64,000 nucleotides of DNA from an uncultured Actinomycetota bacterium (GTDB taxonomy: Bacteria; Actinomycetota; Actinomycetes; Streptosporangiales; Streptosporangiaceae), in assembly GCA_963805805.1 (NCBI GenBank), contig CAWDVS010000026.1, positions 187,333 to 251,332 of the forward strand. Direction: 5' to 3'. This document shows positions 39,392 to 59,495 of the stretch, one piece after another. The first letter of the stretch is position 1. Each line of letters starts with the position of its first letter. The notes beneath the pieces are model-generated. The model ran no database searches, was not told the origin of the DNA, and saw nothing but the letters and a program-made list of their open reading frames with translations. The translations under genes and the position numbers were made by a program.

Positions 39392-40072
39392 ATGGCCGAG
39401 CGCCGCCACGCGGAGGGCATGCGTTATACCAAGCGCCGCATGGACTTCCTGCTCAACCGCTGGACCCTCAAGCTGGCCGTGAGCCGTGTGCTCGGCTGGC
39501 CCGACGATGACGCCGTGCTGGCGCGGATAGAAGGACGCACGGCCCGCGACGGCGCACCCGAGCTTTTCGTTGGCGGGCAGCCTGCTGCCCGCGGCATCTC
39601 GCTTACTGACCGGGCAGGCTGCGCTGCCTGCCTGGTTGCGGACGGGCCTGCCGCGATCGGATGCGATCTGGAACTCGTGGAAGCGCGCAGCGACGCGTTC
39701 GTGCATGACTACCTGACGGAGTCCGAGCGCGATCTGGTCGCAGCCGCTGGCCCGGCTCGCGACGTCGCCGCCAACCTCATCTGGTCAGCCAAGGAGAGCG
39801 CGCTGAAAGTGCTCCGCACCGGCCTGCGCCGGGATACCAGGTCGGTCGAGGTGACCGTGGAAGACCTGACGCCACCGGAGCGGGCCTGGTCTCCGCTCCA
39901 GGTCCGTGCCGTCGAGGGCCTCACTTTCGGCGGCTGGTGGCGGCGGAGCGGATCGTTCGTGCTTACCGCATGCGCATCCGGACAACTCCTGCCGCCGGCG
40001 GCGCTGGAGGGAATCTCGCCGCTGGACGAGCTGTCTCCCTCGCATACCTGGCTGCACCGGCCGCTGGCATAG
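39392..40072 (+). CDS. Sfp-type 4'-phosphopantetheinyl transferase (N-terminus probably extends to about 39316 in another frame)
   Basis: It has GCDLELVE (Mg-binding D..E) and WSAKESALK (W/FxxKE(A/S)xxK). The upstream frame encodes VLTSWLARAECKLPGGVGWLTDG, which reads into ERRHAEGMRYTKRRMDFLLNRWTLK. Confidence 0.8.
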   Translation: MAERRHAEGMRYTKRRMDFLLNRWTLKLAVSRVLGWPDDDAVLARIEGRTARDGAPELFVGGQPAARGISLTDRAGCAACLVADGPAAIGCDLELVEARSDAFVHDYLTESERDLVAAAGPARDVAANLIWSAKESALKVLRTGLRRDTRSVEVTVEDLTPPERAWSPLQVRAVEGLTFGGWWRRSGSFVLTACASGQLLPPAALEGISPLDELSPSHTWLHRPLA

Positions 40073-43000
40073 CTTTGCCGCCATTGCCCTAGCTGGTATG
40101 TCGCTGCGGAGTGCGGCCGCGCCGGGCGCTAGTGCAGGCGGTCGCTCTGGTGTCGGCGCGAGCCGCCGCTCAAGCGCTTCGATGATGAATGGACGCAGCT
40201 CAGCGGCCGGGATGATGTCATCGACCGAACCCACCCGCCTGGCCCGCTGGACGTCGTGAATGCTGTCGAACTCATCGGCGACTTGCTTGAGCTTCTCGGC
40301 CCGAACTACCTGAGTGAGGACGGTCAGCTCATGCCGCAGGTCTGCGCGGGCGTCGGCCAGACCAGCTGCGAGCTTCTCGCGCCCGGTCACGATTCGCGGA
40401 TCATTGTCAGTCCTGGCGCTAACCTCGCGCGCAAAGACCACCGCGGCGGCTGGTCCGCCGCCGATCACCGACGCGTAAGAGCCGGCCACCGCAGCAGTCA
40501 CCATGCCGTCGTGCAGTCGCTTGGAAAACACTACGAAGGCGCCGCCGTGGTAGCGCGAAACCACCACGAAGATTATCGGGCCCCGGAAGTTAGTCACCGC
40601 GCGGCCGATCTCCGCGCCATACTCCAGTTGCCACTTGCGCATGCTCTCCGGTGAGCCGTCGAATCCGCTGAGGTTCGCCAGGACTACCAGGGGGCGGTTG
40701 CCGCTCGCGGCGTTCACGGCGCGGGCGATCTTGCGCGAGGACTGCGGGAAGAGCGTGCCGGATGTCCACGATGGCGGACCGTCGGCCGGGACGAATCCGG
40801 TGCGGGGAAGGGTCTGTGATTCGAGGCCGATGAGGCAGACCGGGAACCCGCCGACGTGCGCTTCCCAGACGATGGCGTTCTCGGCGTCGCGCCACCTCAT
40901 CCAGCGCTCGAACGGCTCATGATCAGTGTCGGTGACGGCGCGCATTACTGATCGCATGTCGAAAGGCTTCTTGCGCTCGCCATTCAGCTCGGCGGAGAAG
41001 ATATCCCCGATGCGCTGAAAATCCGACCCGGCAACGGTCTCGTGCGGCGACAGGCATACGTCCCGGTCAAATGGGTCGCTGGTGGGCGCCCGCCTCGGGC
41101 AGTCCTCACCCGGGACGATGTACGTGTGCTCGTAGTGCCGGAGCAACAGGGCGCATGCGTCGGCCAGGGTGGGGGCCCAGTACTGTCCTTGTCCGTTCGG
41201 GCCCATGATCCGGTCGAATCCGCCGATCCCGAAGTTGTCCTCGGCCGACACTCCGCCCGAGTAGTCCAGTGAGCTCTTGCCCGTCAGCACCATCGCGCTG
41301 TTCGGCGTCATCACGAGGATTCCGCGCGTATGCATGAGCATGGTGGCCTCGGCGTTCCAGTAGGGCTGCGCACCAACGTTGATCCCGGTGACCACGACGT
41401 TGATCTCACCGCCTGACTGCGTGAACTCGATCAGGCGCCGCAGCACCGCGGCTATCCAGTCCATGTTCTCGGTACCGCTGTCCCAGGCGATGCGGGCGCC
41501 CGAGGAGAGCGCGAACCACTCGACGGGAACCCTCATCCGACGGGCAAGTGCCAGCGCCCCGAGAATGCGGCGGCATTCCGGCTCGGCGAGGTTTCCCAGG
41601 CCCGAGGTCGGGTCGCCGAGAATTGCTACGCGACACATGCCCTCAGGTACCAGCGGGGTGTAGTTACTGATCACCCCGACCACGATGCCGGCGACGTTGC
41701 GGCCGTAGGGCCGGTCGACCGGCATTAGCTCGTCGCTGCTGTCGTCGAGGTCGTACTCGGTGAACGCGCCAGCAGGGAAGTCGGCGGGCGCGTTCAGCGG
41801 TGGAGTGAGCGTCCGGATGAGCTCATACGGATAGGGAAACCCGAGGCGCTGCGATCGCAGCAGCTTCTGCTTGTACTCAGTCAGTGGCCTGATTGGCCGG
41901 TCGGCAACTGGCCGGACTCGTACGCTGACCGCGCTGTCGGCGACGTTCTCTACGTCGAGGACAGCGTCATGGCCTTCCCCGGTGGCCGCATCCACCGTCC
42001 GGATCCTCACCGTGATCTTCTCAATGCCAAGGCCCGCGGCCATCGGTGCCAGCCTGTGGGCCACGCCACGCCAGGTCCCTTGTGCGATGTCCCAGGTCGG
42101 GCGCACGTAGAGGATGATCCGGTTGGTCAGCGGCCGCTGCTTCTGGGGCCGGCGGCTGAGCGCGTGACGGATGTCGGCAAGCGCCTGAGCAAGAACTCCC
42201 TCCAACTGCGGGAAGCCGATTGCCCGGCCGCCCGAGTCTCTGGCGGCGGTGAGGTCGCGAATCTCGGCGATTGCGATCAGGCGCTCGTCCTTCGGGTTCT
42301 CGCGGGCGACCGCGTGGAACAGGTAGATGTCCTCGGCGCTGGACATCCGCTGGAGAGTGAAGTTTGATAGCCGCCACAGCTCGAGACGCTCGGCGATCAT
42401 GGGATGCAAATTGCGGTAGAGCGGGTCCTCGGTGAACCCCGCATCGTCCTGGCGGAAGGTGAAGTGCAGGGTGCGCAGGTGCTCCTCGGGCTCTGCCTCC
42501 GGATCGGGGCCGCTCTCAGTGGTGACCGTGATGTCGAGACGGTGCAGCATATGACCGAAGTCAGTTCGCTGAAGCAAAGAGGCCAGCTCGGCGGCCATCT
42601 GCTCGGCATCCATCCACTCGCCGCTCCGCCAGGACTCGATATCCAGGACGACATGCTGGTCCGGGGGCAGGGTGGCGAGAAACGCCCGCAGCTCAGTGGC
42701 GAATCCGGCAAGGTCCGCGATGGACACATACCCGGTGACCAACTGCACGTCCCGCCCATCCTCGGTGTAGTTGGCGAGGCAGATCAGGTGCGGGCCGAAT
42801 GCGTGGCATCTCATCTGAGCAAGCTCGTGGATCCGGTAGTACCGGAGGGTCCGTGCCTGTAGCAGCCGTATCCTCGTGGTGGCATCCGCGTCGCGGTACC
42901 TTTCCCGCAGCAGCGCGCGCATTGGCTGCGGGCACCACATGAGGCGATCGGTGAGCTGGCGGAGACGTTCTCCGGAGGGATGTGCGGCGAGTTCGTCGAT

Positions 43001-45712
43001 GCACCGCTCCATCTCCGCATGCACTTGGTGGCGCTGGCGCCCTAGCGTCGGCGCATCGACGTAGCTGCGGCGCACCTCAAGTGCCAGGTCGCAGACTTCA
43101 TGATGACGTCCCTGCGTTGCGGCGACGAGACGGTCGAGGACCGCGAGCCGCTCGTCGGTCATCAGAGCCACCAGCGCGTCGCGCCGGTGCAGCCACTGGT
43201 CCAGGAGCGCCATGATGACCGGCGCGGTGACGTGGACTCGCGCAAGAGACCGGTACATGCGCAGCAGCGCGTGCTCAAGTTCCGGCGTGCGCCGCAGCGA
43301 CGTGACGCCGTAGCGCGCCAGCGCCCGGCGCAGCGGGCTGAGGAAGCGCGCCGGCAGCGCGCTGCGCTCTGGATCGAGAACGGCCAGGTAGGTGAACAGG
43401 TAGTCCTCGGCGCTGTGGGCGTGCTCATCCTCGGCCTCGTCCGGCTCACGCCGTGCCAGCGTGGCGATGTCGGCGAATATGTCGAGAAGTTCTTGCTGCT
43501 GGCCGACTAGGCCCGGGTCGGCCGGGCCGGCAGCTGTATTCATCGCCTCCTGCCTGATGCTCAGCGCCCGCGCGGCATCCTGGTCGACGTCATAGCCGAG
43601 CAAGTAGCCGCGAAGAGTAGCAGGATCGCCATGGCCGTCGGGGTTGTGTCCGTCCGCGCCGAAACCGGTTGCCAGTGCAGCCAGATCGAACCGCTGCCCG
43701 GCCGTGGCATGACGGTCCGGCTGATCCGGTGGCAGCAGCTGCACCAATGACGCGCCGGCCTCCACCTGTGTGTTGACGCGGGCGAGCACGGCGTGGACCG
43801 TACCTGGAAGAGGAGCCGTGATGGAGGTCTCCATTTTCATGCTCTCGACCACGATGAGCGGATCGCCGGCCCTGACCGTATCGCCAGGGGCGACGAGGAC
43901 CTGGACAACGAACGCGGGGGCCGGGGCGCGGACGTGACCTCCGTCGTCGCGGGTGATGACGTGGGGTATGCCGCCTACTTCAATGATGATCCTCGGCCCT
44001 TGTACATCGGCGACGACACGAAGGCGCTGCCCGAGGCAGGTCACGGCGCGCTCGTAGCGGCTGAGGCGCTGGACATTCACGTCTATGACACCCTCGCCGG
44101 TGTCGACTCGGTAGTCACCGCGCTCTAGGCAGTAAACGTGCATTCGGTAGGTGTTGCCGCGCAGGCTCAGCTCGACCGCGTGCCCAACCTTGTCCGGCAA
44201 TTCCGGCCGCCCGCGAGCCGCGGCCGCAAAGAAGTTGGCCTGGACGGCGGCCTGATCCACGTCGGCCGCCTCGATGGCCGCCGCCAGCAGCGCAACGGGG
44301 TTCTGCTGCGGAAGATGCTGCCCGGCGGCGGTAAGCCGGTCGAGCCATTGGTTGTCGTAGCTGCCCGCACGCATCTCAGACCGGTCAACCAGGGCGAGCA
44401 GGAAGGCCTTGTTGGTGGTCCCGCCGTCAACGACGACGACCGATTGCGCAAGGGCGCGGTGCAGCCTGCTCAGTGCCTCGGGCCGGTCCTGGCCCAACGC
44501 GACGACTTTGGCGATCATCGAGTCGAACTCGGGCGCGATCTCGTCGCCCTCCGCGAGGCCGGCGTCGACGCGGATACCCGGGCCGCACGGCGCCCGCAGC
44601 GCGGACACCCGGCCAGGTGCCGGGGCGAAAGCGTGCTCTGGGTCCTCGGCGTTGAGGCGAGCTTCGATGGCGTGCCCGCGGATCAGCGGCGGGCTCCCCT
44701 CCAGCCGCCCACCTTGCGCGATGTGGAGCTGCAGTTTGACCAGATCGAGTCCGGTGGTCAGTTCGGTGACCGGGTGCTCGACCTGGAGCCGGGTGTTGAC
44801 CTCCATGAACAGGGATTTCCGGGTCGCCGGATCGACGAGGAACTCGACCGTGCCGGTGCTCTTATAGCCCGCCGCGGCGCATAGCCGGACAGCCGCGTCG
44901 CGCAGCGCATTCTCTGCGGACTTGTCGAGCAGGGTGCAGGCCGACTCCTCGATGACCTTCTGGTTGCGCCGCTGAACGCTGCAGTCGCGGACGCCGACCG
45001 CCCACACCGCGCCATGGCCATCGGCCACCACCTGAACTTCCACGTGGCGCGCGGCATCCTGCCTGCGCTCGATGAAGACAGTGCGGTCACCGAACGCGTG
45101 GTCCGCCTCGGCCTGGGCGGTAGCGAACGCGTCGCGCATGCGATCGGCGGATTCCACCGCTCTGATGCCCCGGCCTCCCCCTCCAGCAGCTGCCTTCACA
45201 AGTACCGGATAGCCCAGCATTCCCGCGGCGAGCAGCGCGCTGTCGGCGTCATGGACGGGACCTCCGCTCCATGGCACGACGGGGACACCGACGCTCTCAG
45301 CAAGCCGCTTGGCATTCACCTTGTCGCCGAGGAGCCGGATGGTCTCACTGGACGGGCCGACGAAGGTGATACCCGCGCGCTCGCAGCGTTGGGCGAATTC
45401 GGCCGACTCGGCGACAAAGCCCCAGCCCACCCAGACAGCGTCGGCGCGCGCCTCTGCAAGCGCTGTCATCAGCCGGTCGAGATCGAGGTAGGTGCTCTTG
45501 CGGCGGCCGTCAGGGTCGGCGAAGGTCGCCGGGCCGAGCAGCACGGCCTCGCTGGCTTCCCGGACGAACCACGCTGCTGAGTCCGGCTGCGTGTACAGGG
45601 CGATCGTGGCGATAGGGTCGCTGGAGTCCGAGTTGAGCTCCGCGACCGCGGCGATGCAGCGCATCGCCGCTTCTCCGCGGTTGACAATGGCGAGTCTGCG
45701 AATGGTGGTCAC
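39785..45712 (-). CDS. fused multidomain acyl/acetyl-CoA carboxylase (biotin carboxylase - BCCP - central region - carboxyltransferase); 3' ~300 nt of the ORF is doubtful
   Basis: The GTG start follows GGGAG. The BC ATP-grasp domain starts IAIVNRGEAAMRCI.... The biotinyl motif VVESMKMET has its Lys codon at 43835-43837. The C-terminus is a CT domain (...GGAFVVFS...). The last ~95 aa are Arg-rich and antisense to the PPTase gene. Confidence 0.85.
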   Translation of the reverse strand: MTTIRRLAIVNRGEAAMRCIAAVAELNSDSSDPIATIALYTQPDSAAWFVREASEAVLLGPATFADPDGRRKSTYLDLDRLMTALAEARADAVWVGWGFVAESAEFAQRCERAGITFVGPSSETIRLLGDKVNAKRLAESVGVPVVPWSGGPVHDADSALLAAGMLGYPVLVKAAAGGGGRGIRAVESADRMRDAFATAQAEADHAFGDRTVFIERRQDAARHVEVQVVADGHGAVWAVGVRDCSVQRRNQKVIEESACTLLDKSAENALRDAAVRLCAAAGYKSTGTVEFLVDPATRKSLFMEVNTRLQVEHPVTELTTGLDLVKLQLHIAQGGRLEGSPPLIRGHAIEARLNAEDPEHAFAPAPGRVSALRAPCGPGIRVDAGLAEGDEIAPEFDSMIAKVVALGQDRPEALSRLHRALAQSVVVVDGGTTNKAFLLALVDRSEMRAGSYDNQWLDRLTAAGQHLPQQNPVALLAAAIEAADVDQAAVQANFFAAAARGRPELPDKVGHAVELSLRGNTYRMHVYCLERGDYRVDTGEGVIDVNVQRLSRYERAVTCLGQRLRVVADVQGPRIIIEVGGIPHVITRDDGGHVRAPAPAFVVQVLVAPGDTVRAGDPLIVVESMKMETSITAPLPGTVHAVLARVNTQVEAGASLVQLLPPDQPDRHATAGQRFDLAALATGFGADGHNPDGHGDPATLRGYLLGYDVDQDAARALSIRQEAMNTAAGPADPGLVGQQQELLDIFADIATLARREPDEAEDEHAHSAEDYLFTYLAVLDPERSALPARFLSPLRRALARYGVTSLRRTPELEHALLRMYRSLARVHVTAPVIMALLDQWLHRRDALVALMTDERLAVLDRLVAATQGRHHEVCDLALEVRRSYVDAPTLGRQRHQVHAEMERCIDELAAHPSGERLRQLTDRLMWCPQPMRALLRERYRDADATTRIRLLQARTLRYYRIHELAQMRCHAFGPHLICLANYTEDGRDVQLVTGYVSIADLAGFATELRAFLATLPPDQHVVLDIESWRSGEWMDAEQMAAELASLLQRTDFGHMLHRLDITVTTESGPDPEAEPEEHLRTLHFTFRQDDAGFTEDPLYRNLHPMIAERLELWRLSNFTLQRMSSAEDIYLFHAVARENPKDERLIAIAEIRDLTAARDSGGRAIGFPQLEGVLAQALADIRHALSRRPQKQRPLTNRIILYVRPTWDIAQGTWRGVAHRLAPMAAGLGIEKITVRIRTVDAATGEGHDAVLDVENVADSAVSVRVRPVADRPIRPLTEYKQKLLRSQRLGFPYPYELIRTLTPPLNAPADFPAGAFTEYDLDDSSDELMPVDRPYGRNVAGIVVGVISNYTPLVPEGMCRVAILGDPTSGLGNLAEPECRRILGALALARRMRVPVEWFALSSGARIAWDSGTENMDWIAAVLRRLIEFTQSGGEINVVVTGINVGAQPYWNAEATMLMHTRGILVMTPNSAMVLTGKSSLDYSGGVSAEDNFGIGGFDRIMGPNGQGQYWAPTLADACALLLRHYEHTYIVPGEDCPRRAPTSDPFDRDVCLSPHETVAGSDFQRIGDIFSAELNGERKKPFDMRSVMRAVTDTDHEPFERWMRWRDAENAIVWEAHVGGFPVCLIGLESQTLPRTGFVPADGPPSWTSGTLFPQSSRKIARAVNAASGNRPLVVLANLSGFDGSPESMRKWQLEYGAEIGRAVTNFRGPIIFVVVSRYHGGAFVVFSKRLHDGMVTAAVAGSYASVIGGGPAAAVVFAREVSARTDNDPRIVTGREKLAAGLADARADLRHELTVLTQVVRAEKLKQVADEFDSIHDVQRARRVGSVDDIIPAAELRPFIIEALERRLAPTPERPPALAPGAAALRSDIPARAMAAKLCQRPVQPGMRGRQLVQRRDSLQRRRRQELSGCACGKHERSAPPPPAAESEALDGTDLERRPGPLRWRQVFHGHLDRPGIPAQAGAEHFQRALLG

Positions 45713-45745
45713 GCCGGCTCCCGTAGCCGCGAGTAACTCACGTCA

Positions 45746-46545
45746 GCCCCGCATAGCTGCACGTATCGGGCGCTGGAGCTCGTCCGCAATCGCACCGGGC
45801 AGCGCCATGGAACGGTACCCGTCGATGCGGACGAGCACGTCGCCGGCCGAGTCCACGACGCGGCAGTCGAAACTGCCGTCGCTCACCGGATGAACGAGAG
45901 CGAGCAGGGGCCCGTTGCCACGTGGCTTGTGCAATGTCCGGATCAGGTCGGCATGCCAGGGCAGCGCCAGCCGCCCCGCCTGGCCGATGTCCCACAGACC
46001 GACCGTCTGGAAGCACAGCTCGGCCAGCAGTGGCTCGGTCGTCGTCGGATCTCCCGATGGCAGGTGGTCGGGGGGCAGGTGCTCGGCTAGTCGGCCGACG
46101 ACGTGACCGTTGCAGCGCCACGCCTCGTCGAGCACCTGGTAGGCGGGGCCATGGGGGAACACGCGGTAAATGTCGGCATGGCCGACACGCGCGGCAGTAG
46201 CACTGGTGGGGGAGTCATCAATCTCCGGGCGCAGCGCCTGCGTAGTGAGCCGGACGCTGCCGGTGAAATGCGTTGTCCAGCGCGGTGCCTCGTCCCCCTT
46301 GATCATCCTGCTGCAGAGCCATCGCGCAGTCCGCCACGAGGTCGGAGCCATCCCTGCGGACCACCGCCCGAACCGTCACCGTCCGCGGCTCATCGCGGTA
46401 GAACTTCACTGGCGCCATGAAGTCCATTCGCTCAACGCCCGCCACGTTCAGGTCCGGAGCTGCGAGGCTCGCGACTGCGGCGAAGGCCTCGGCGCCCATG
46501 ACCCCGGGGAGCACCGTGATGGATTCGATCTTGTGATCATGCAGG
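45746..46545 (-). other. PKS domain DH (polyketide-type double hot-dog dehydratase)
   Basis: It has FLHDHKIESITVLPGVMGAEAF (HxxxGxxxxP) and a second motif region LLAELCFQTVGLW. A frame break lies at about 46310-46330. Confidence 0.75.
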
Positions 46546-46564
46546 AACGGCTGTGCTAGCTGGG

Positions 46565-48140
46565 TCCAGTGTCGTCTCGACCGTCAGCCCTGAGTAGACG
46601 CCCATGCAGGTAACGGATCCGGCCATCGGTCTGGCCCCGGTCCTGACGGCGGCGATGTCGAGGCCGCCGGCGGGGTCAAGCTCGCGCAGCATCATGCCGA
46701 GCTCTCCAGCGACGACGACCTCACCGCGGAACGGGCCAGCTGTCAGCTCCCGCCTAATCCAGGCGATTCCTGCCTCGGGAGGCAGCATCTCTATCCCGGC
46801 CATCTCCATGATCTTCGGGATGGATCCGCGCGTGGCCATGCCGAGGCCGGCCCACGCGGTCCAGTCGAGGACGATCCCGCGGGTGCCCGGCCGGGTCCGG
46901 CGGAAGCTCGACGTGATCTTGCACAGCAGATCGTTAGCCGCGCTGTAGTCGGTCTGGCCGGCATTGCCGAACCGGGCTGCCACCGAGCTGAAAGCCACGG
47001 TCGCGCCGATCGGCAGGTCGCCGGCCGCATGCAGGAGGTTGAACCAGCCATCGCTCTTCACATCGAATACGAGGTCATATTCGCGGCGGTCCTTGTCGGC
47101 GATCCCGCGGCTGATCTCGATCCCGGCCGCGTGCAGCAGTACGTCGATGCGCCCGTGCCGTTCGCTGATGTCCGTGACAACCCGTGCGACTGCCTCGGCG
47201 TCGGTCAGGTCTAGTGCGTGGTAATGAGCTTCGCCCCCTGCCGCGCGTACGGCTTGTATCGCGGTGAGCGCGGACTGGAGCCGCTCGTAGCGGGAGAGCT
47301 CACGCTCGACCAGCACGGGCGTTGGCCGTTGTCCGCCTGCCTTGAGCCGCTCGCTGATCGTTGCTTTGAACGCATCCCGGTCGGTTGCGAACTGAACCAG
47401 ATCCACGTCGGCAGGATCAGGCTCAGGACTCAGATCGAGCAGGTGGAAGGTGCCGCCGCTGGCGGCAGCCAGGTCTGCGACGATCGCTGACACGATGCTG
47501 CCGGCCGCCCCGGTGACGACGAACACGCTCTCGCTCCAAGGGTTAGCCCGCCAGCTCCGTCGCCGAACGCGACCTCGCGCAGGCCCACGGTCCAACGGCG
47601 GCCGTCTGCCCGGCCGACCTCTACTGCTCCCGGGTCACGCCGGGTCTCCTCGATGAGCGCGTCAGCGAGCGACGCGGTCTTCCTGCTGACGGGGAAGTCC
47701 ACGGCCTTGACGAGTACTTCAGCCCGCTCACGGTGGTAGGCCTTGGTGAAGCCGGTCACGGCACCGCCGAGAGGTGCAATGGCGCCCGTTTCGTCATAGC
47801 CGTGGTAGCCACCGAGGCGGGTGGCCGAGACCAGGAACGTGCCCCGAGGTCCGAGCTGACCCTCGCGATCCAGGCGCCGCACCACCGAATGCAGGTTCTT
47901 CACCCGGCTGGCCAATGCATCGCGCCAGCCGGCCAGGTCGAGTTCCTCAATGGGCGGCTCGGCATCAAGCGCCGCAAGCCAGTACAGGCCGTGCACAGGA
48001 CCGTCCGCGAGCCACGTCCCCATCCGCGCGTCGATTGCGTCGGCTGCGGATCCGGCTTCCAGGACAAGAGCGGTCACGCCAAGCGCACCAAGGCGCCTGA
48101 CGAGCGCGGCCGCGACGCCACCCTTGTCTGCCATCACGAT
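46565..48140 (-). other. PKS domain KR (structural + catalytic subdomains)
   Basis: It has VIVMADKGGVAAALVRRL (pseudo-Rossmann), VFVVTGAAGSIVSAI (Rossmann), and VAFSSVAARFGNAGQTDYSAAN (catalytic Tyr). Confidence 0.8.
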
Positions 48141-48343
48141 GACGCGTTTGGTGTCGTCCAGGGTCACGCCGGTGAGGGAGCACCACTCGATCGGAGGCCG
48201 CAGCACCGGAATCGGAATCCGGCGCGGCAGCGCTTCGGCTGCGGCGATGTCTCCTGTGAACGCGGGCGTGCTCCGAAACGCCGGCGGTGCCTCCTGGGCC
48301 GTCGGGGAGTTGTGGCCAGCCGGGCCGCTGCGAGCTGTGCCCG

Positions 48344-48585
48344 GTCGCGGGCGAAGCCGATGACGTGGGCGAGGGTGGGGAAGTCGCGCAGCCTGAGGTT
48401 CTCATCGCGCGGGATGCCGAACCGTTCCCGCACGGCCGCGAACACCTCGGCCTGCTTGACGGTGTCGACGCCGAGGTCGGCTTCGAGGTCAAGATCGAGG
48501 TCGAGCAGCTCGGCCGGGTAGCCGGTCATCTCGCTGACGATCTGCACGATCTGACTGGTGACCGCGTCAGCGGCTGGCTCGGCTG
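48344..48585. repeat. ACP-encoding tandem repeat copy A (period 344 bp)
   Basis: By eye it is identical to 48688-48929 except for one mismatch (accgcg versus acggcg). Confidence 0.9.
48350..48571 (-). other. ACP3 (PP-binding) with DT in place of DS
   Basis: The core is identical to ACP2. The Thr codon ACC is at 48461-48463. Confidence 0.8.
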
Positions 48586-48687
48586 GTGCTTGCGCGGCCG
48601 GCTCTGCCGGGACTTCGGCGCGGCGGCCGCCCGGTGCCACCGTCGCGGCATGCTGCGCGGCGGTGGCGGGTTGTGTCACCTGTCCGC

Positions 48688-48929
48688 GTCGCGGGCGAAG
48701 CCGATGACGTGGGCGAGGGTGGGGAAGTCGCGCAGCCTGAGGTTCTCATCGCGCGGGATGCCGAACCGTTCCCGCACGGCCGCGAACACCTCGGCCTGCT
48801 TGACGGTGTCGACGCCGAGGTCGGCTTCGAGGTCAAGATCGAGGTCGAGCAGCTCGGCCGGGTAGCCGGTCATCTCGCTGACGATCTGCACGATCTGACT
48901 GGTGACGGCGTCAGCGGCTGGCTCGGCTG
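48688..48929. repeat. ACP-encoding tandem repeat copy B
   Basis: See copy A. Confidence 0.9.
48694..48915 (-). other. ACP2 (PP-binding) with DT in place of DS
   Basis: The core is identical to ACP3. The Thr codon ACC is at 48805-48807. Confidence 0.8.
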
Positions 48930-49018
48930 CGGCGGCGGCGGCCGGCTCGCCCGGTGTCACCGGTGGCAGGCTGCCCGTGCGCTCCGGAGCCGAGCCGTTC
49001 GGTGCGTCGGTCACCTGC

Positions 49019-49246
49019 CCGCTCACGGACGAAGCCGATGACGTGGGCGAGGGTGGGGAAGTCGCGCAGCCTGAGGTTCTCATCGCGCGGGATGCCGAAC
49101 CGTTCCCGCACGGCCGCGAACACCTCGGCCTGCTTGACGGTATCGACGCCAAGGTCGGCTTCGAGGTCGAGGTCCGGCTCCAGCAGGTCTCGTGAATAAC
49201 CGGTCAGGCCCTCAACGATGTCGAGCACGGTTTGCTCGACCAGGTC
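49019..49246 (-). other. ACP1 (PP-binding) with DT in place of DS
   Basis: The sequence is [45 protein letters not shown]. The Thr codon ACC is at 49139-49141. Confidence 0.8.
49031..49172. repeat. ACP-encoding tandem repeat copy C (partial, few mismatches, then diverges)
   Basis: It shares gaagccgatgacgtgggcgagggtggggaagtcgcgcagcctgaggttctcatcgcgcggg... with copies A and B, at an offset of 334 bp from B. Confidence 0.85.
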
Positions 49247-49633
49247 TGCCGGAGACACTGCGGGCACACTCAGAGCAGGCGCCGGAACTGCTGGCGCCGG
49301 CGGTGCTGCCTGCGCCATGGTCGGCACTGGTTCTGCCGCGGGTGCCCGGCCGTTCGCCACCTGGCCGTTCGCCGCGGCGACAACCGCGACGTCGGTAGCT
49401 GCGGTAGCAGGTGATTGCGCGGCTGCGGGCACTACCGCGGGATCGGCAGGGGCCGCGGGTACCTGGACAGGACCATCATCGGTGACGCGCAGGCGGTGCT
49501 GCACGACCTCAAGCCGAGCATCCGGACGACCACTCACCCGCGCCAGCCACGAGCGCCATGTCACGTCGTCGACCACGCGATAGGCGAAGCCCAGGTCGGT
49601 CGGCGCCTGACGCCGGCCATCGGCTGGCGCGGT

Positions 49634-51140
49634 CCAGCGCAGCAGCATCATCGCTATCTGCGAGCCGAAGCCCGCGGCGAGACGAAGCGCATAGGTGACG
49701 GGATAGGCACCGCCGCGCGACAGGTTCAGCTGGCCCAGCTCAGGATCGATCTCGCGGAAATTTGCGACCGGCGGGACGATGCCGGTTTCAAGGGCCTTGA
49801 CGGCCACGACCTCCTCGATGCCCGCGCCCATAGCGTGACCGGTGAAGCCCTTTGTGTTCGTGATGACGACCGAGTCGGCGGCTGAACCGAAAACCCGCCG
49901 CAATGCGTTGATCTCAGCCGCCGCGCTGCCGCCCCGTGCGGGGGTGTATGTCTCATGAGAGACGAACACCGTCTGGCCCGCGATCGCGAGGCGGTCGATG
50001 CCCCGCCGCTCGGCCTGCCGGATGAGATTCTCCATAACCTGGCCGATGTGCTCGACGTCGAGCCGGGTGCCGTGGAACGCGCTGTTGGCGGCCACCACAG
50101 CGAGCACCTCGCAGATCGGGCGGATGCCGCGCTCCCGTGCCGCCGCCGCGGACTCGACGACCAGCGCTGCGGCACCAGATCCGATAATCATCCCGTGCCG
50201 ACGCCGATCGAATGGCAGCGCCGCGTCCTCCACGACGTCGTCGGTCGCCGCCGCGCCGCTAGCCAGGAAACCCGACCCAGTCCAGGGCAGCAACGCGTCG
50301 GAGGCTGCGCTGTCCGCCGACACGACGATCACCCGGCGGCAGCGGCCAGCGCGGATCCAGTCCTCGGCGACCGATACCGCCACGGCTGTGCTGGCGCAGG
50401 CCGAGTTCACCTGAGTGTTAGGGCCACGAGCGCCGATTAGCTCGGCGAACTGCGAGTGCCCCATCGCCAGCACCCTGAACAGGAAGCGGCGGTCGAATGC
50501 GAACGGATGGGTCTCCAGTTCGTGCCGCAGCCCGGCGATGCGCCGGTCCACCTCGGCGGCCGCTTGGTCCGCCGTGTTCATCCGGGCGCGCACATCCGTG
50601 AGCGTCGCCAGCTCGCGTCCGGCGCGAACGGTCCTCCTGGTAACAGTTGATATCGTGCGCGAACGACTCGTAGCCAGGGAACGCCGAGGCGAAAACCACG
50701 CCCGTGTCGTCTCGCAATTCATCGGGCAGGCCCCAGGGGCCGGGCAGCTGAGTCCCCAGCGTGGTGGTGTGGTAATGCCGGACTAGCGGGATGCCCGCGT
50801 CGCGCAGTGCGTCGATGCCGGCGCCGATCGCGAGCCGGGTGCAGGAATCGAGCGCAGCATCGCGGTCGGGATCGAGGCCGAACTCCTCAACCGCATCGAG
50901 AGGGCCGAAACGGCCCGCCAGCTTGATGACGTCGTCCTCGCCCTTGATCATGTCGAAGACCGGGCCGCCGCGGTCGCTCTTTACCAGCCGGGTGATGTGC
51001 TTGTCGACCATCTCACGGCGTATCTGGCGTGGTATCACATCGATGAACTGCTGGCCGGACAGGATTCGGGCGACGTTCTCATCGTCGAAGACGTGCCCCA
51101 CGCCGGGCAGACCGAGCGCGGCCCCGGTAATGACGACCGG
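49634..51140 (-). other. PKS domain KS2: divergent second thiolase-fold ketosynthase with long N-terminal/helical insertion
   Basis: It starts PVVITGAALGLPG. It has NSACAST (Cys codon at 50396-50398), [12 protein letters not shown] (His) and [13 protein letters not shown] (His). A frame break lies at about 50620-50640. Confidence 0.7.
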
Positions 51141-51494
51141 CTCCACGGGTTCAGACGGGTACCGCGACAATGCAGGTGCCGCGTCCACGGCGGGCAACGG
51201 TCCGTCAGCGTCGGCGAGGATGTGACGGCTCCGCTCGAGCAAGTCCGCCAGCAGGTGGCCGAGTTCGGAATAACGATCAGGAGCCACCACTGCCTCGGCG
51301 GCAGGGGGTGCGGGGAGGTTCGGAACGGCACGGGCCGCCTCCGGCCTGGCGGCAGCGGTCGCGGCTGGTGTCGCACCGGGATAGCCGAAGCCGGCCGCGT
51401 ACAGACCGCAGAGGGCGGCGTTGAACGAAGACAGGTCCCCGTTCTTAGGATGGTTGGTGAACAGGGTGACGACATCGTCGTGCTTTGCGCCGAG

Positions 51495-52391
51495 CACGTC
51501 CTCGGCGAATCCAGCCAGCGCACGCTTCGGGCCGACCTCGACGAACACGCGGGCACCGGCCTCGTAGAGGGTGTTGAGGCCCTTCACGAACTGGACCGGA
51601 GAGGCGACCTGCCGGCCCAGAACGTCGAGCATTCGTCCTTCCGCGTCCGGGCCCTCTGCCAGGTAGAACTCCCCGTCGACGTTGGCCACGATCGGCAGCG
51701 TGGGAGCGTGCAGATGCAGCCGTGCCAGCGTCCGCCGGAGCGGCTCGCTGACCGGTGCCACGATGGATGTGTGGAACGCGTGGCTGACCGGAATGCGCAC
51801 GGCCGTCAGGCCCGCCTCCTGGAACGCCAGCATCGCCCGCTCGACGGCCGCAGTGGCGCCGCCGATGACGGCCTGATGAGTGCTGTTTACGTTAGCGACC
51901 ACCACGTAGCCGTCGACCGAGGCCACGATCCGCTCGATCTCCTCCAGCGGGGCCGTGACGGCAGCCATCGCTCCGCGGTCGGCGATCTCCAGGCTGGCCA
52001 TCTCGCGGCCGCGCGCGCTGACTGCCTCGAGCGCCGCGGCGAAGGACAAGGCGCCTGCTGTCACTAGCGCTCCGTATTCACCGAGGCTGTGACCCATCAC
52101 CATGTCGGGCTCGATGCCATAGGCGCGCATTAGCCGGGTGAGGGCAATGTCGGCGGTCAGCACGGCGGGCTGGGTGATCTCGGTCCGCATCAACTGCTGC
52201 TCGAGCTCCGCGACCGCTGACGGGTCATTGCGGTCTACGAATATGTAGTCGGTGAGCGGCCTGCCGAGCAACGGTGTCATCACGCGGTCGGCCTCGGCGA
52301 ACGTCTGCGCCACAATCGGCTCTCTCGCGCGCAGCTCTTCGAGCATGTTGGCGTACTGCGAGCCCTGGCCCGTATAGAGGAAGGCGACCTT
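51495..52391 (-). other. PKS domain AT (malonyl-type acyltransferase)
   Basis: It has FLYTGQGSQY, GHSLGE (Ser codon at 52086-52088) and VSHAFHT. Confidence 0.85.
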
Positions 52392-52856
52392 GGGCGCAGG
52401 GCCGTGGCCAACGAAGATGCCGCGCGCGCGCAACATCTTCCGCATCGCGGCGGTCCCGCTGGTCAGCGCCTGCACGGCCATCGCCGCTTTGTCCGCGAGC
52501 TCGGCAGCGCCGTCGTAATCGATGGCGGCCCGGACGCTGGCCCCGACCAGGGCCGGATCCGGCGGCTGCGGTGGCGGAGCCTCGCCGAGGGCAGCCCGTC
52601 CACGCACATGTGCTAGTTGCGCGGCCACGTCCGCATACGTTTCACCGCCCACCACGAGGGCGCCACGCAGCGGGGCCTTGACCCCTTCACTCGCCGGCGT
52701 GCCTGCGTCCGCTGCGGCCGGGCCGCCGGAGCCCTCAGTCGAGCCAGGGCGAGGATAGGCGGATGCGAGCACCGGAATCCCGGCGCCAACAGTGGCGTGC
52801 AGGTCAGCGCGTGCTGACATCTGCCGCCCTGTTTCGTCGAGCCGGCCAGGTATGTA

Positions 52857-54245
52857 CTCCTCCAGCACGGCGTGGAAGTTGGTGCCGCCGAAGCCGAACG
52901 CGCTGACACCGCCCCGCCGCACTCCCGATGGCGGCATCCGCCACTCGCGAAGCTCTGTGTTCACCCGGAATGGCGAGGCCGGCCAGTCGACGTTCGGGTT
53001 AGGGTCGCGGAAGTTCAGGCTTGGCGGCAGTACCTTCTCATGTAGCGCCATGGTCATTTTGAACAATCCGGCCGCGCCCGCGGCGCTCTTCAGATGGCCT
53101 ACGTTCGACTTCACCGAGCCGAGCGCGATCGAGCCGGGGACGACGTCGGCCCCGCCGAAGACGGCATTGAGGCTTTCGAGCTCGGAGGCGTCACCGACGC
53201 GAGTTGACGTGCCATGTGCCTCGACTGCGGACGCGGTTGAGGGCTCGACCCCGGCGTTGCGCCAGGCACGCTCGATCGCCAGGCGCTGCCCGGCCGGATT
53301 AGGGGCCGTGATCCCCTTGCCCTTCCCGTCGCTCGATCCCGCGATGCCAAGCAGGACCGCATAGATGCGGTCGCCGTCGCGCTCGGCGTCGGCGAGCCGC
53401 TTCAGGACGAACAGCGCCGCGCCCTCAGCCATCACGAAACCGTCTGCGCCTGCATCGAACGGACGTGTCCCCGTCGCGGAGAGCGCTCCGATCTTGCAGA
53501 ATTTCACGAATGCGGCGACATTCATATTGCGGTCCACACCGCCGGCAATCGCGGCATCGAATTGCCCGTCGACGAGCCCCTCTGCGGCGGCGTTGACGGC
53601 GGCCAGGGCGGAGGCACACGCCGCGTCGGTGGTGAAGCTGGGCCCGTGGAAGTTGAAGAGGTTGGCGATCCGGCCTGCCAGGATGCTCGCCAGCTCGCCC
53701 GGCATCGTGTCCTCGTTGATCTCGGGGAACTGGCTCCCGAACGACCGCGAGGTCTCGGCGGTGATCAGCTCGCGGATGTCGGCGGGCAGCCCTGCGAACG
53801 CTGGTGACCTGGCGAGCTCTCTGGTGAATTCGGGAAGCTGGATGCGGAGGTTGCTCGCGTAATGCTTTTCGCCGCCGATCGCGTTGCCGATCACTACGGC
53901 GACCCGCGCCGGGTCGACCTTCCAGGTCGGCCAGCCCGCGTCCAGGAGTGCCGTGCGGGCCGCCGAGACTGCCCATTTCTGGCTGTCATCCATCTGGTCG
54001 CCGACCTTCGGCGGAATCGGTAGCCGCCAGGCGATCGGATCCCACGGGAATTCGCCGACCCACCCGCCGATGCGCGAGTAGGTCTTGTCGGGTGCCCGCG
54101 GGTCAGGGTCGTAGTACAGATCCGGGTCCCACCGGTCCTTTGGGACATCGGTGATGCTGTAGCGGCCTTCGGTGAGGTTGTGCCAGAACACCTCCGCATT
54201 AGGTGCCTGCGGCATGATGGCCCCCATACCGACGATGGCGACCGG
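52857..54245 (-). other. PKS domain KS1 (PUFA-synthase-type ketosynthase)
   Basis: It has VAIVGMG, DRWDPDLYYDPDPRAPDKTYSRIGGW, TTDAACAS (Cys codon at 53616-53618), EAHGTST and SNVGHLK. Confidence 0.85.
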
Positions 54246-54280
54246 CTGCGGCTGGCGTGGAGCGGGCTTGCTTGCAGAGC

Positions 54281-56002
54281 TCATGACGATCGATTCTGTG
54301 TCGGGGGCGGCGATCTGGGTGGCCCGTAGAGGGCGTCAGCGACGCTGTCCATGTCGGCTAGCAGTCCGGCCTGGGCGGCGCGTATGGCGTCCAGGCGCAG
54401 GCCGGTTTCGAAGCCCGCCGTGTCGGCGCCCTGGCTGGCGCCGATCACCCAGCGCAGCCCTTCATGGGCCACTTTGTATGCGGCATTCCGTGCGAACACC
54501 CGGCTCATTGCCGCGAGGGCAGCCGGGTCGAACCGGTGGTCGGCCTTGGCCGGGAGGGCGCCATCGAGGGCCGAAGCGGCGCGTGCAGCGAAGGTGGCGG
54601 CGCACTCCGCGTGGGCGATCAGCTCACCGAGCCGAAGTAGCACGTGCTGGCTCCGAGTGAGGCGGCCGACGCGGCAGGCTTCGAGCACGCCGGCGAGTGC
54701 CTCGCTGGCCAGTGCCGCCGTTCCGGCGCCAACGTCGGCGCGGCGCGCGTGCAGCGCGCGGAGCTCGGCTGCGATCTCGTTGTAGTAGTGCCCGGCGGAC
54801 TTCAGGTGCTGCTGCCAGCGGTCGCGCGCGATCGTCATCTCCATGATCTCGGATGTGCCTTCATAGATCGTGGTGATGCGGACGTCGCGCTTGATCTTCT
54901 CGACCAGGTAGTCCCGGGTGTATCCGTAACCGCCATGCGCCTGAATGGCCGCGTCCGCGGCCAGGTTGCCTGCCTCGGTCGCAAGGTACTTGGCGATGGC
55001 TCCCTCGGTGTTCAGGGCGCCGTTCTCGCCCTGACCCGCGTCAATCCGCGCGGCCGTGTACTCGATGTAGGAGCGGGCGGCCTCTAGCAGGACAGCATGC
55101 GGGACGATGAGCTTGTGCGTGTAACCCTGCTTCTGTGACAGCGGCGCACCGGCCTGGATGCGCGTAGTCGAATAGGCGATGGCGCGGTCGAGCGCCGACC
55201 AGCCGCCGCCGAGACCGAAGGCCGCGACCGTAAGGCGCGTGAAGCCGAACACCATCTGTGCCTGCACGAGTCCCTGCCCCTCGACCCCGCCGACGAGGTT
55301 CTCCGCAGGCACGAAAGCGCCATCGAGGAACAACGCCGCGGTGTTGGACAGGCGGATGCCGTGCTTGTCCTCGGGCCGGTTCTGGGTGAAGCCATCCGTG
55401 CCGCGCTCGAGAACGAACCATGATGGACCGCCCGGGGCCCTGGCCAGGATGGTGTACATGTCGGCGATGCCGCCGTTGCTGATCCACTGCTTGCGGCCGG
55501 TCAGCCGGTATCCGATGGTCTGCCCGTCTTCGACCACAGGTGTCGCGGTGGTCTTCAGCGCGCCGAGGTCGCTGCCTGCCTCCGGTTCGGTGGCGCCGTA
55601 CGCATAGAGGAGTCCGTGCTTGGCGATATCGGCCAGCCACCTGCTCTTCTGTTCTGGGGTCGCGCCCACGAAAATCGGATCGCTGCCCAGAGACGTGGCA
55701 AACACGCTCGTGGCCAGACCGAGATCAAGGCGAGCCATCTGCTCGCAGATCCGGTAGACATCGACGGTGTCACAGCCCATCCCGCCGTATTCCTCGGGAA
55801 TGAACAGCAGGTGCACGCCGAGCTCATCACTGCACATCGCTCGGACCAAATCTTCCGGGCACGCGTCATCGTGGTCGAGCTCTAACTGGCGCTCCTCCGG
55901 CATCGCTTTGGTCACGAATTCCTTTATCGTGTCCAGCGTCATTTTGAGGGTCTCGGCGTCGATACCAGTATCGGCGCGCTCTGTCACGGCGGGCGTCAGC
56001 AC
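54281..56002 (-). CDS. acyl-CoA dehydrogenase family protein with ~190-aa C-terminal extension
   Basis: It has [23 protein letters not shown] and [10 protein letters not shown] motifs. The GTG start lies 9 nt after GAGGAG. The stop overlaps the PKS ATG (ATGA at 54281-54284). Confidence 0.85.
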
Positions 56003-56711
56003 GAAAAATCACTCCTCGGCATCGAACGTATCGCTATCAATCGCAGCCAACAGGGCCATTGGTCCTTCGTATTGGCCTCGGCATTTTCGTGATCTTGGGG
56101 GGTTGGCGGCCTGAAGTTGCGGCTGGCCGGCGTTTTCGGCCGCCGATTGTGTCTGGTGGCCCGGCTGTCGGCGGCGGAGAACAACCGCAGCCGCAGCTTG
56201 CGTGGTCCCAGCGGCGGGCGGTGCCGGGCAGGGCGAGCATCGCGATCCAGGCCAGCAGCCACGCGCCAGCGCGACGATCTCGCCCGGAGCTGGTTCTGGT
56301 CGAAGCCGTGCAGCGGCAGGCTGCACCCGACCGCGACTCAGCTTCCGCAGTTCAGCAGCGACTTCCCGGCAGTATTCGCCGTGCTGGCGCCGGAGCCGGC
56401 GAGTCCGAGCCATGACTGCGTTGGCAGTTGCGAGTACCGCGGCTCGCGAAGAGTCCGTTCCGCGCTGCGGAATCCGCCCGCGAAATTGCCGATAGACCCC
56501 CGAAAACGATTCACGCCGGGGCGCGAAGATCATTTGACAATACTGTCTTGCCTGGCCGATGGAGCCCCTTACGGAATCAAACCGTAGATCTTCTCCCTTA
56601 CCATGGGACTCTGGCCGTCTCTATTATCGCAGGCAGCACTCTCAACAGCGAGAGCGCGAGCACGTCCTGGCACTGTAAGTCTCAGACAGCCTGTTACGAG
56701 GGAGGAGGCTC

Positions 56712-57248
56712 ATGCGCGAGATCACTTACGCGGTACAAGGATTTCTGACAGTCCGCAGGGACTCCTTGCGCGTGCCTGTGAGCGGGTCGCTAGCAGTCCA
56801 GGCTGACCCGGACTCGGGCCTCTTCACGGGCGACCTCGTCCTCGACCAGTCCACGATCAGCCGGATAGTCCTTGGCGCCAGCCTGTACAGCGCTACCGTC
56901 CAGATTGTGCCCGACTCTCCCGTCATCGGCAGAGTCGACCACGAGGGCCAGCTCTTCGCGACAGTCACGGTCGACGCGGTCATAGCTGCTGTCCACGTCG
57001 CCGGGCGGACGTTGCTCGGTGGCGCCTCATGCCGGACCGCCACTCACGCCGTCGTGCCGTTGCGCTCCAAGCCCGGCTTCCACCTGGAGCAGGGCGGCCG
57101 CCTGGCCGGCCGGTACCACCGGCCGCCCTTTACTGGCTGCGGGTGGAGCACTCCGCTTATCAACCTGCTTGTCGCCGGCCCGGGGAACGCCGTTGTCATT
57201 GACCTCGTCCCGGCCGCAGGGTGTCCCGCAACGCCTCAAGCGCAGTGA
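56712..57248 (+). CDS. hypothetical protein (178 aa, no recognised domain)
   Basis: The ATG is preceded by a strong SD (GAGGGAGGAGG). The composition is protein-like and beta-rich. The 3' end overlaps the convergent SDR gene by ~50 nt. Confidence 0.55.
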   Translation: MREITYAVQGFLTVRRDSLRVPVSGSLAVQADPDSGLFTGDLVLDQSTISRIVLGASLYSATVQIVPDSPVIGRVDHEGQLFATVTVDAVIAAVHVAGRTLLGGASCRTATHAVVPLRSKPGFHLEQGGRLAGRYHRPPFTGCGWSTPLINLLVAGPGNAVVIDLVPAAGCPATPQAQ

Positions 57249-58251
57249 AGCGGGGTGCCCAGCCCAGTTCGCGCTTCGCCCGGGTAGTGTCCATGATCGC
57301 CGGATGGCTGGCCGCCTCCACCCACTGCGCGATGGGCGGAAGGAACGGCAGGGCGGCGAACGCCCGGGCCGTGAACTGGGCCGGGCCCACGGGCAGGGGC
57401 AGCGGGAGCATGCCGAGTTCACGGGCGATGTCGGCGGCGGTGACGATCCCGTCGGCGGCGATGTTGTAGGCACCGGGCGGTCCGGCCGCGACGACACACC
57501 GCAGCAGTGCCTGCCCCGTGTCTTCCTCGTGGACCAGCTGCAGCGGCAGCGCCGGCACCAGCACCGGCAGTGGAATCTGGCCAGCCAGCCTGCCCAGACG
57601 GCGGGCCAGCGGAGCCAGCGGCCCGGGCAGCTGGTCCTTCGCGCCCACAGCGTGCGGGCCCACCACGATTGACGGACGCAGCAGGTAAAGGGCTGGTCTG
57701 GGCCCTGACCCAGCAGCGGTCTCGTCCCGCAACAGGGTCTCGAGCTCAGCCTTTTCCTGGGCGTAGAACAGCCGGGCGGCGGGCCGCACCGGCCAGTCTT
57801 CGGTCATGCCCACAGGGTTATCGGGGTGGAAGCCGTAGGCCGCCACTGAGGACGAATAGACAAAACGGCGGGCCCCGGCCGCGGCCGCGGCACGGAATGC
57901 GTTCAGCGTGCCTTCGACGTTGACCGACCGGATCGCCTCACGTGACGCGGCGCCGGTAACCAAGAACGCCAGATGCACCACCACGTCGGCATCGCCGAAC
58001 GCGGCACGCAGGGCGCCGGGGTCGCGGACATCCCCGCGGTGGTACACCATCTTCGTCCAGCCGTATGCGACCGGGTCGAACGGGCGCCGGGCAATGCCCA
58101 CGATTCGCGCCACGCGGTCGTCTGCCTGGAGCAGGGGCATCAAGCCGAAGCCGAACGTACCGGTCGGACCGGTTACCGCGACTGTAAGATCCGTCTCTCT
58201 GGCAGGCACCGAATCGGCTACCTCCCTGGCCCTAGTTGTCTGGCACAGCAT
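57196..58251 (-). CDS. extended SDR, NAD-dependent epimerase/dehydratase / 3beta-HSD-like family
   Basis: It has VAVTGPTGTFG (GxxGxxG) and a YAQEK (YxxxK) catalytic pair. The start is taken at the ATG at 58251. Confidence 0.8.
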   Translation of the reverse strand: MLCQTTRAREVADSVPARETDLTVAVTGPTGTFGFGLMPLLQADDRVARIVGIARRPFDPVAYGWTKMVYHRGDVRDPGALRAAFGDADVVVHLAFLVTGAASREAIRSVNVEGTLNAFRAAAAAGARRFVYSSSVAAYGFHPDNPVGMTEDWPVRPAARLFYAQEKAELETLLRDETAAGSGPRPALYLLRPSIVVGPHAVGAKDQLPGPLAPLARRLGRLAGQIPLPVLVPALPLQLVHEEDTGQALLRCVVAAGPPGAYNIAADGIVTAADIARELGMLPLPLPVGPAQFTARAFAALPFLPPIAQWVEAASHPAIMDTTRAKRELGWAPRFTALEALRDTLRPGRGQ

Positions 58252-59363: not shown

Positions 59364-59495
59364 GGCGGTATCGACAGGTCGGATAGCCGTCTGGGAGTGA
59401 CGTTCGCCCCTATCGCCAGGCACCCGGAGCCGGAAAACTCTCATCCCTAACGATAACGCCAAGCGCGCGCCGCGATCGGTGCACGAGGGGGACCA

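Follow-up and report, generated by a model that had tools for sequence, protein, structure and literature searches.

A threonine at the phosphopantetheine attachment position of the acyl carrier domains in a PfaA-like megasynthase family found in several bacterial phyla

The window, by which we mean the whole stretch of 64,000 nucleotides that was analysed, carries a PfaA-like megasynthase gene together with genes for an acyl-CoA-dehydrogenase-family protein (ACAD), a single-chain multidomain biotin carboxylase and an Sfp-type phosphopantetheinyl transferase (PPTase). Pfam matches on the open reading frame (ORF) pieces, combined with a frame map, give the megasynthase the domain order KS1-AT-KS2-ACP x3-KR-DH (Table 1). 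The carboxylase is presumably an acetyl-CoA carboxylase (ACC). Its tblastn alignment in the orthologous locus L003 covers 1857 amino acids, and the final 118 or so codons of the ORF in the window, which cross the 3' end of the PPTase gene, are probably an over-extension. The order ACAD, megasynthase, carboxylase, PPTase is conserved among related loci, the ACAD being present in 79 of 82, the carboxylase in 65 and the PPTase in 61, and the loci that do not show the PPTase of the module are mostly cut by contig ends.

Table 1. Coordinates in the window of the megasynthase, its domains and the neighbouring genes.
Feature	Position	Strand	Basis and details
Sfp-type PPTase	39392..40072	+	PF01648 53.2 bits (cut-off 25); convergent with the ACC gene
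Single-chain multidomain biotin carboxylase (BC-BCCP-ACC_central-CT)	39785..45712	-	1975-codon ORF; Pfam and NCBIfam; downstream of the megasynthase
PfaA-like 'Type R' megasynthase	45743..54284	-	Pfam domains on ORF pieces; collinear tblastn with the L003 orthologue
PKS-type dehydratase, DH (PKS_DH_N + PS-DH)	45743..46560	-	PF14765 in a window piece; two frameshifts inside
Ketoreductase, KR	46849..47523	-	PF08659, E 2.5e-24
ACP3	48344..48568	-	Thr36 codon ACC 48461-48463; PF00550 27.8 bits
ACP2	48688..48912	-	Thr36 codon ACC 48805-48807; PF00550 28.0 bits
ACP1	49022..49246	-	Thr36 codon ACC 49139-49141; PF00550 21.4 bits
KS2, divergent second ketosynthase	49480..51180	-	Cys in NSACAST, His in SHETYTPAR and His in NTKGFTGH kept
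Acyltransferase, AT	51489..52382	-	PF00698, E 2.8e-45; GHSLG and HAFH by motif scan
KS1 ketosynthase	53010..54248	-	PF00109, E 6.6e-65; PF02801, E 5.8e-36; active-site Cys in DAACAS
ACAD-family protein	54281..56002	-	573 aa; Pfam and NCBIfam; directly upstream, overlapping the megasynthase start

Judged by these motifs, the machinery of the synthase looks catalytically competent, with the active-site Cys of KS1, the Cys/His/His set of KS2 and both signatures of the AT present; of the latter, HAFH is the signature of malonyl-type acyltransferases. The KS2 residues (C109, H256 and H296) are invariant in our family alignment A2, which rules out a reading of this domain as a chain-length factor. 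At the carboxy-terminal end, the DH region of the L003 orthologue is matched by both PF21089 and PF14765.

In the window the megasynthase is broken into at least eight frame segments separated by indels of 1-2 nt. When aligned by tblastn with the intact 2997-aa L003 orthologue, the frame changes fall at about 50616, 49022, 48688, 48322, 47535, 46561 and 46320; the first of these interrupts KS2, and ACP1 and ACP3 share a reading frame while ACP2 lies in another. An earlier note on this DNA, made from the letters and their ORFs, had overlooked these frameshifts. An ENA metagenome contig (L001) that shares 98% identity with the window lacks these indels and carries different ones, and further genes of the window are split as well (a Glu/Leu/Phe/Val dehydrogenase and a GH65 gene). 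The frameshifts are thus most likely long-read assembly errors and the organism itself probably carries an intact gene, a reading that the same two observations make more likely than a pseudogene confined to the megasynthase. The related contigs have names in the style of long-read assemblers and belong to the MFD soil MAG series, and most relatives carry the gene as a single intact ORF of 2750-3390 aa. The broken gene retains about 80% amino acid identity to its L003 orthologue, which is the level of its intact neighbours (80.5% for the ACC and 86.5% for the ACAD). On the other side, the carboxylase ORF next door stays open over 5.9 kb while the megasynthase has some seven frameshifts, which leaves a real pseudogene in this strain as the less likely reading.

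Carrier proteins are by convention defined by a conserved Ser to which phosphopantetheine is attached, and annotation patterns have this rule built in. The three tandem ACP domains of the window, each of about 75 residues, score slightly over the PF00550 (PP-binding) gathering cut-off of 20.8 bits, and in intact orthologues the summed PF00550 scores range from 59.9 to 102.9 bits. Where the canonical acceptor would read D-S-[LIV], all three copies have Thr, in the motif GVDTVKQAE. The earlier note had placed this Thr at the phosphopantetheine-Ser position and had read an ACC codon in every copy; the codon positions were confirmed, and translation, alignment to solved ACPs and a structural model agree on the placement. 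In phmmer alignments the Thr falls on the phosphopantetheinylated Ser of solved ACPs (dlgvdSialae in PigH and dldvdSlsmve in a Streptomyces FAS ACP). The AF2 model of ACP2 (pLDDT 92) is a helical bundle with helices at residues 2-15, 36-50 and 66-74, in which Thr36 is the first residue of helix II, and Foldseek superposes it on solved AcpP-type ACPs, including E. coli AcpP, with TM scores of 0.84-0.89 and an rmsd of 1.4-1.6 Å. By alignment and predicted fold, then, Thr occupies the canonical phosphopantetheinyl-Ser position. The possibility that a nearby Ser is the residue modified, which the earlier note had kept in view, does not survive translation of the window ACPs, since there is no Ser near the attachment site and the sole Ser residues of the domain, S5 and S12, both lie in helix I.

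The three ACC codons had also been taken as an argument against an isolated read error. That argument is weak, because the ACP copies are near-identical DNA repeats (a single nucleotide out of 225 separates ACP2 from ACP3, and over its final 140 or so nucleotides ACP1 almost matches both), so that the three codons amount to essentially one observation. The conclusion itself was right, and it is the relatives that establish it. Two related contigs, L001 at 98% identity and L002 at 89%, have a Thr codon in each copy, one of these codons being ACG; L001 has four ACP copies against the three of the window. In the 120 best protein homologues, Thr is found in 215 of 215 motifs of the form LG[VI]DTVKQA[ED]. 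At the DNA level, we found it in 283 of 283 ACP motifs from 81 loci (80 from the genome scan, with L067 left out and L001 and L002 added), a count that is partly circular since the genome-scan pattern itself contained DTVKQAE; its codons are ACC (137), ACG (121), ACA (13) and ACT (12). These loci span Actinomycetota, Acidobacteriota, Calditrichota, Gemmatimonadales and Rhodothermales, include isolates (Amycolatopsis sp. NPDC021455 and Nostocoides sp. F2B08 carry the family) as well as short-read MAGs, and hold between one and seven ACP motifs each, most commonly three or four. No Ser-type ACP was found on either strand of the 81 loci, and the earlier note's claim thus passes the check for Ser codons in relatives that it had named as a way to overturn it.

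A second sample was drawn through KS2, blind to the ACP motif, in order to remove this bias. A KS2 query of 377 residues was run against 1.84 billion representative proteins, and in the best 150 representatives at 50% identity we counted 309 ACP motifs, of which 298 have Thr and 11 have Ser. Read error is therefore ruled out as the source of the Thr by L001 and L002, by the 81 loci and by the KS2-drawn motifs together. The family is present in at least 592 confirmed stretches of species-representative genomes from Acidobacteriota, Actinomycetota, Calditrichota, Chloroflexota, Gemmatimonadota, Rhodothermales and others. The ACP domain is itself under strong constraint: of its 76 columns, 15 are invariant and 14 nearly so. 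From these comparisons Thr is a family-wide, strongly selected and near-universal feature, and the earlier note's suggestion of a little-studied, family-specific variant is borne out by a DTVKQAE motif that is essentially invariant across many phyla. In the openly searchable full-text literature we found no report of Thr as an attachment site or of the motifs DTVKQAE and DTVKQ, nor any previous description of a carrier protein that naturally bears O-phosphopantetheinyl-threonine. For the gene family as such, full-text searches gave only the cluster survey of Shulse & Allen (2011), which uses neither the word serine nor the word threonine and leaves the attachment residue unmentioned (PMC3098273). 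The Thr hallmark of the family has apparently gone unreported.

The Ser-type motifs are informative in their own right. They occupy the same alignment column as the Thr and, in a neighbour-joining KS2 tree without support values, belong to three lineages nested separately among Thr lineages, namely P0176 with five Ser motifs, a marine clade (P0232 and loci between L086 and L104), and P0218 and P0256, each of which has a mixed Ser-Thr-Ser series. A metagenome scan for LG[VI]D-S-VKQAE, covering TCN but not AGY codons, returned 25 loci, ten of them marine and with the architecture of the family (L086, L087, L089, L090, L092, L093, L097, L100, L103 and L104). This marine lineage resembles the window in its KS-AT-KS2-ACP2-KR-DH order, at about 45% identity, and in having a PPTase gene directly downstream (in L092 and others). 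It differs in its ACP motif, ELGVDSVKQAE, in which the site is Ser, and in a FabI-type enoyl reductase (L100) that stands in the position of the ACAD; neither ACAD nor carboxylase was found in those marine Ser loci whose flanks were examined. Because the ACAD sits where the Ser clade has this reductase, it may be an enoyl reductase or a desaturase for an ACP-bound chain. The marine Ser contigs are AT-rich, and one of them has a TBP-like ORF. From the distribution on the tree, Thr looks like the default state of the KS2-bearing synthases and is probably ancestral, and Ser looks to have taken its place at this column on several occasions. A repeated exchange of Ser and Thr at one column is what would be expected if both residues do the same job.

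The PPTase that accompanies these synthases belongs to the Sfp type (group II) by its PF01648 match and by its conserved catalytic motifs. In the window these read GCDLE and WSAKESALK, and the patterns GxDxE and WxxKE[AS]xxK are invariant both in our PPTase alignment (A3) and in the 82 Thr-associated PPTases; the N-terminus of the window protein is about 25 aa shorter than those of its homologues, and the version in L003 (20895-21650) is full-length. A single-sequence search of the PDB with the PPTase gave no PPTase match, and a profile was needed to reach AcpS, EntD (7bcz), Sfp (1qr0/4mrt) and human AASDHPPT (2cg5). The NCBIfam model TIGR00556 likewise scores under its cut-off. In more distant relatives the PPTase is not a neighbour but a part of the synthase, a C-terminal PPTase domain being fused to the megasynthase in at least 33 of the 150 representatives of the KS2 sample; of these 33, 31 have Thr in all the ACP motifs detected, and in the other two no ACP motif was detected. 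When the 82 Thr-associated enzymes were compared with 7 Ser-associated ones, the catalytic motifs proved identical in both groups and no convincing residue for Thr specificity appeared. The sole consistent difference is in the P1a motif, G-x-P with Thr and [RK]-A-P with Ser. It was set aside as a specificity determinant because just two independent lineages supply the Ser-type enzymes and the departure from the canonical motif is on the Ser side.

Since 61 of 82 loci have the PPTase gene alongside the synthase, and at least 31 representatives join a PPTase domain to a megasynthase whose detected ACP motifs are all of the Thr type, we favour a Thr-accepting PPTase, which the earlier note had listed among three options with the adjacent gene as candidate. 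We infer it from comparison of sequences; it is a plausible mechanism with substantial comparative support, and the best supported of those considered. The three domains would be functional acyl carriers in a PfaA-like synthase of the iterative kind that makes a lipid or polyketide. The dedicated PPTase, encoded in trans in the window and carried as a C-terminal fusion in distant relatives, would move phosphopantetheine from CoA to the Thr hydroxyl by means of its ordinary Mg-dependent catalytic residues (GxDxE and WxxKExxK). The resulting holo-ACPs would shuttle malonyl and acyl thioesters among AT, KS1/KS2, KR, DH and probably the ACAD-like protein, with the adjacent single-chain carboxylase supplying malonyl-CoA and a lipid as the presumed product. 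We consider it probable, on the strength of these comparisons, that the ACPs of the window are working carriers whose Thr hydroxyl is phosphopantetheinylated by a dedicated PPTase. The wider proposal, that throughout a broad megasynthase family Thr is the natural 4'-phosphopantetheine site and that the Sfp-type PPTases modifying it form a clade of their own, able to use Thr and perhaps preferring it, is one on which we find the balance even.

A Thr acceptor is not trivially tolerated by PPTases, as the S36T form of E. coli ACP is not phosphopantetheinylated and does not support growth (PMC3340395). This result is the strongest reason to ask whether the Thr-ACPs might go without phosphopantetheine altogether and serve as structural or regulatory pseudo-carriers, the synthase then using a carrier encoded elsewhere or CoA thioesters. 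PF00550 scores barely over the threshold would fit such domains, as would the CoA-utilising enzymes of the module (the ACAD-family protein and the carboxylase). We nevertheless judge this unlikely, and with it the inactive carrier domains that the earlier note had offered as one of its options. The ACPs rank with the most conserved regions of the protein, they have been tandemly amplified as in PUFA synthases, and with no Ser-type ACP in the 81 loci they are the only carriers of a synthase that is otherwise catalytically intact. Moreover, a PPTase with intact motifs is co-conserved with the synthase, or fused to it, even where all ACPs are of the Thr type, and would there have no substrate; the nested lineages in which Ser takes the exact column of the Thr also argue against such pseudo-carriers.

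Less probable still, and in our view quite improbable, is that the Thr hydroxyl bears some other group. This could be an acyl or malonyl chain esterified directly to the oxygen, or a different prosthetic group held by a phosphodiester link, such as a relative of the ribosyl-dephospho-CoA found on CitD and MdcC, and the donor specificity of the PPTase homologue would then have changed. A strict preference for Thr could reflect a different chemistry, though nothing direct speaks for it, and the PPTases are divergent enough to escape both the single-sequence PDB search and the TIGR00556 cut-off. Against this, their profile matches AcpS, EntD, Sfp and AASDHPPT, with metal and base residues conserved, the KS, AT, KR and DH domains are of ordinary thioester-dependent types, and the Ser-type sister lineages share the same architecture and orthologous PPTases. 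As for the view that the Thr codons have no biological meaning and stem from errors of sequencing or assembly, or from a gene decayed in the window only, it could draw on the frameshifts and on near-identical ACP repeats that an assembler might have homogenised, yet it is refuted already for the Thr codons by their presence in each copy of L001 and L002, in isolates and short-read MAGs and in the motif-independent sample. The identity of the broken gene to the L003 orthologue, no lower than that of its intact neighbours, also speaks against this view, which has hardly any probability left.

If phosphopantetheinylation of Thr by the dedicated PPTase is true, PPTase chemistry would be broader than is now recognised, and the poor scores of Thr-ACPs in standard models would have an explanation. 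Such a modification would also be a warning to genome mining against calling carriers without Ser inactive, and would offer a possible PPTase/carrier pair, orthogonal to AcpS/Sfp-Ser systems, for tagging in biotechnology. The S-to-T mutant serves as a 'dead' control in E. coli (PMC3340395), yet Thr is the near-invariant state in this Type R-like family. Acidobacteriota and Actinomycetota from soil often carry the family, which, with carboxylase, synthase, ACAD and PPTase, forms a self-contained module and so points to an abundant uncharacterised lipid pathway. Its cultured carriers include the Amycolatopsis and Nostocoides isolates found here and, according to the 2011 survey, Koribacter versatilis (PMC3098273).

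The known system that the window resembles most in layout is the 'Type R' secondary lipid synthase described by Shulse & Allen as KS-MAT-'CLF'-ACP(3-6)-KR with a PPTase downstream and a product unknown, and reported in Acidobacteria, Chloroflexi and Elusimicrobia (PMC3098273). Domain order and downstream PPTase are shared, and the ACC gene lies between synthase and PPTase as it does in Koribacter versatilis, so that the window gene and its relatives in Acidobacteriota and Actinomycetota fit the Type R family, a match made by architecture and taxa only. In contrast to that description, the second KS, there called a chain-length factor, keeps its Cys/His/His here, and the DH domain and the co-conserved ACAD gene are absent from it.

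Among NCBIfam models the best-scoring one is that of PfaA (TIGR02813), and the synthase shares with PfaA the tandem ACPs, the KS-AT...KR-DH order and a dedicated Sfp-type PPTase (PfaE). The core motif of PfaA ACPs, LGIDSIKRVE, is clearly homologous to that of the window. However, the L003 orthologue reaches 837 bits against a TIGR02813 cut-off of 1010.1, the window synthase has an extra KS2 between AT and ACPs, its partners are an ACAD and a carboxylase, and its site is Thr and not Ser; no PfaB, PfaC or PfaD partner was found among the flanking ORFs examined. The score, the extra KS2 and the missing partners speak against an identity as PfaA. Enediyne-type iterative PKSs (PKSE) are organised as KS-AT-ACP-KR-DH-PPTase, and the distant relatives of the window gene that have a C-terminal PPTase after KR-DH recall them in architecture, whereas in the window the PPTase is in trans and KS2 and several ACPs are present. 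With canonical ACPs (PF00550; Ser36 in E. coli AcpP), finally, the domains of the window share the helical bundle and a DLGxD-x-hydrophobic motif at the start of helix II. They differ in the nucleophile, and the Thr that abolishes both modification and function when it replaces Ser36 of AcpP (PMC3340395) is the residue found in all three carriers of the window.

The single-chain multidomain carboxylase, which is eukaryote-like, is kept together with the megasynthase in 65 of the 82 loci counted, and these loci come from several phyla. The genes upstream of the ACAD-family gene (56455-61515, encoding epimerase/3-beta-HSD, hydrolase and KAS III-like products) also occur in contig L001, which is 98% identical to the window, and we found no conservation of them in other loci. 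A Ser-type sister clade of the megasynthase occurs in marine loci (L100:3511-4326, L092:6673-7446 and relatives among L086-L104), where a FabI-type enoyl reductase occupies the exact position held by the ACAD-family gene in the Thr clade, and where the flanks examined contain no carboxylase. These marine contigs are AT-rich and, because one of them carries a TBP-like ORF, an archaeal host is possible.

When the megasynthase was compared with L001 and with the intact orthologue of locus L003, we found that about seven indels of 1-2 nt break its frame, none of which sits in a homopolymer, and that L001 has indels of its own at other places. The split in the dehydrogenase gene and the apparent one in the GH65 gene are probable additional assembly frameshifts. 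Past the point where its homology ends, the ORF of the carboxylase continues for about 118 codons (39785-40140) and crosses the 3′ end of the PPTase gene, which is convergent with it and whose product has an N-terminus about 25 residues shorter than in homologues; both the overrun and the short N-terminus are probably indel artefacts. Of these two near-identical strains or assemblies, the window has three ACP copies and L001 four, a difference that could be due to repeat collapse in assembly or to real variation; across relatives, the number of ACP motifs counted ranges from 1 to 7.

Coordinates of features in the window and in related sequences
Feature	Position	Strand	Remark
GH65 glycoside hydrolase	35594-38160	-	N-terminal part seemingly separate ORF, 37288-38160
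Glu/Leu/Phe/Val dehydrogenase	38213-38938 and 38829-39326	+	two overlapping ORFs for one gene
PPTase	39392-40072	+
Carboxylase	39785-45712	-	BC-BCCP-ACC_central-CT, about 1860 aa
Megasynthase	45743-54284	-
Megasynthase indels	~50616, 49022, 48688, 48322, 47535, 46561, 46320
ACP repeats	48344-49246	-
ACP repeats, L001	11208-12500
NAD-dependent epimerase/3-beta-HSD family	57196-58416		upstream of ACAD
Alpha/beta hydrolase	within 58473-60734		upstream of ACAD
KAS III-like	60592-61515		upstream of ACAD
TBP-like ORF	L100:1989-2543		184 aa
P0218 ACP attachment motifs	residues ~1126, 1232, 1343

Ser-type and Thr-type ACPs also occur in tandem within single proteins, as in P0218 and P0256, where the motifs read, in order, DSIKAAE, DTVKQAE and DSIKIAE. 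A fused PPTase, represented by its N-terminal part, lies at the C-terminal end of P0218. Such proteins are a natural test case, as one PPTase would have to serve both Ser and Thr. At least 33 of the best 150 KS2-search representatives (50% identity), all distant relatives (P0150-P0263), carry a C-terminal PPTase fusion after KR-DH, and in the 31 fusion proteins with detected ACP motifs every motif is Thr-type. In enediyne PKSE-type synthases the PPTase is likewise C-terminal, following KR-DH, an architecture that these distant relatives of the megasynthase resemble.
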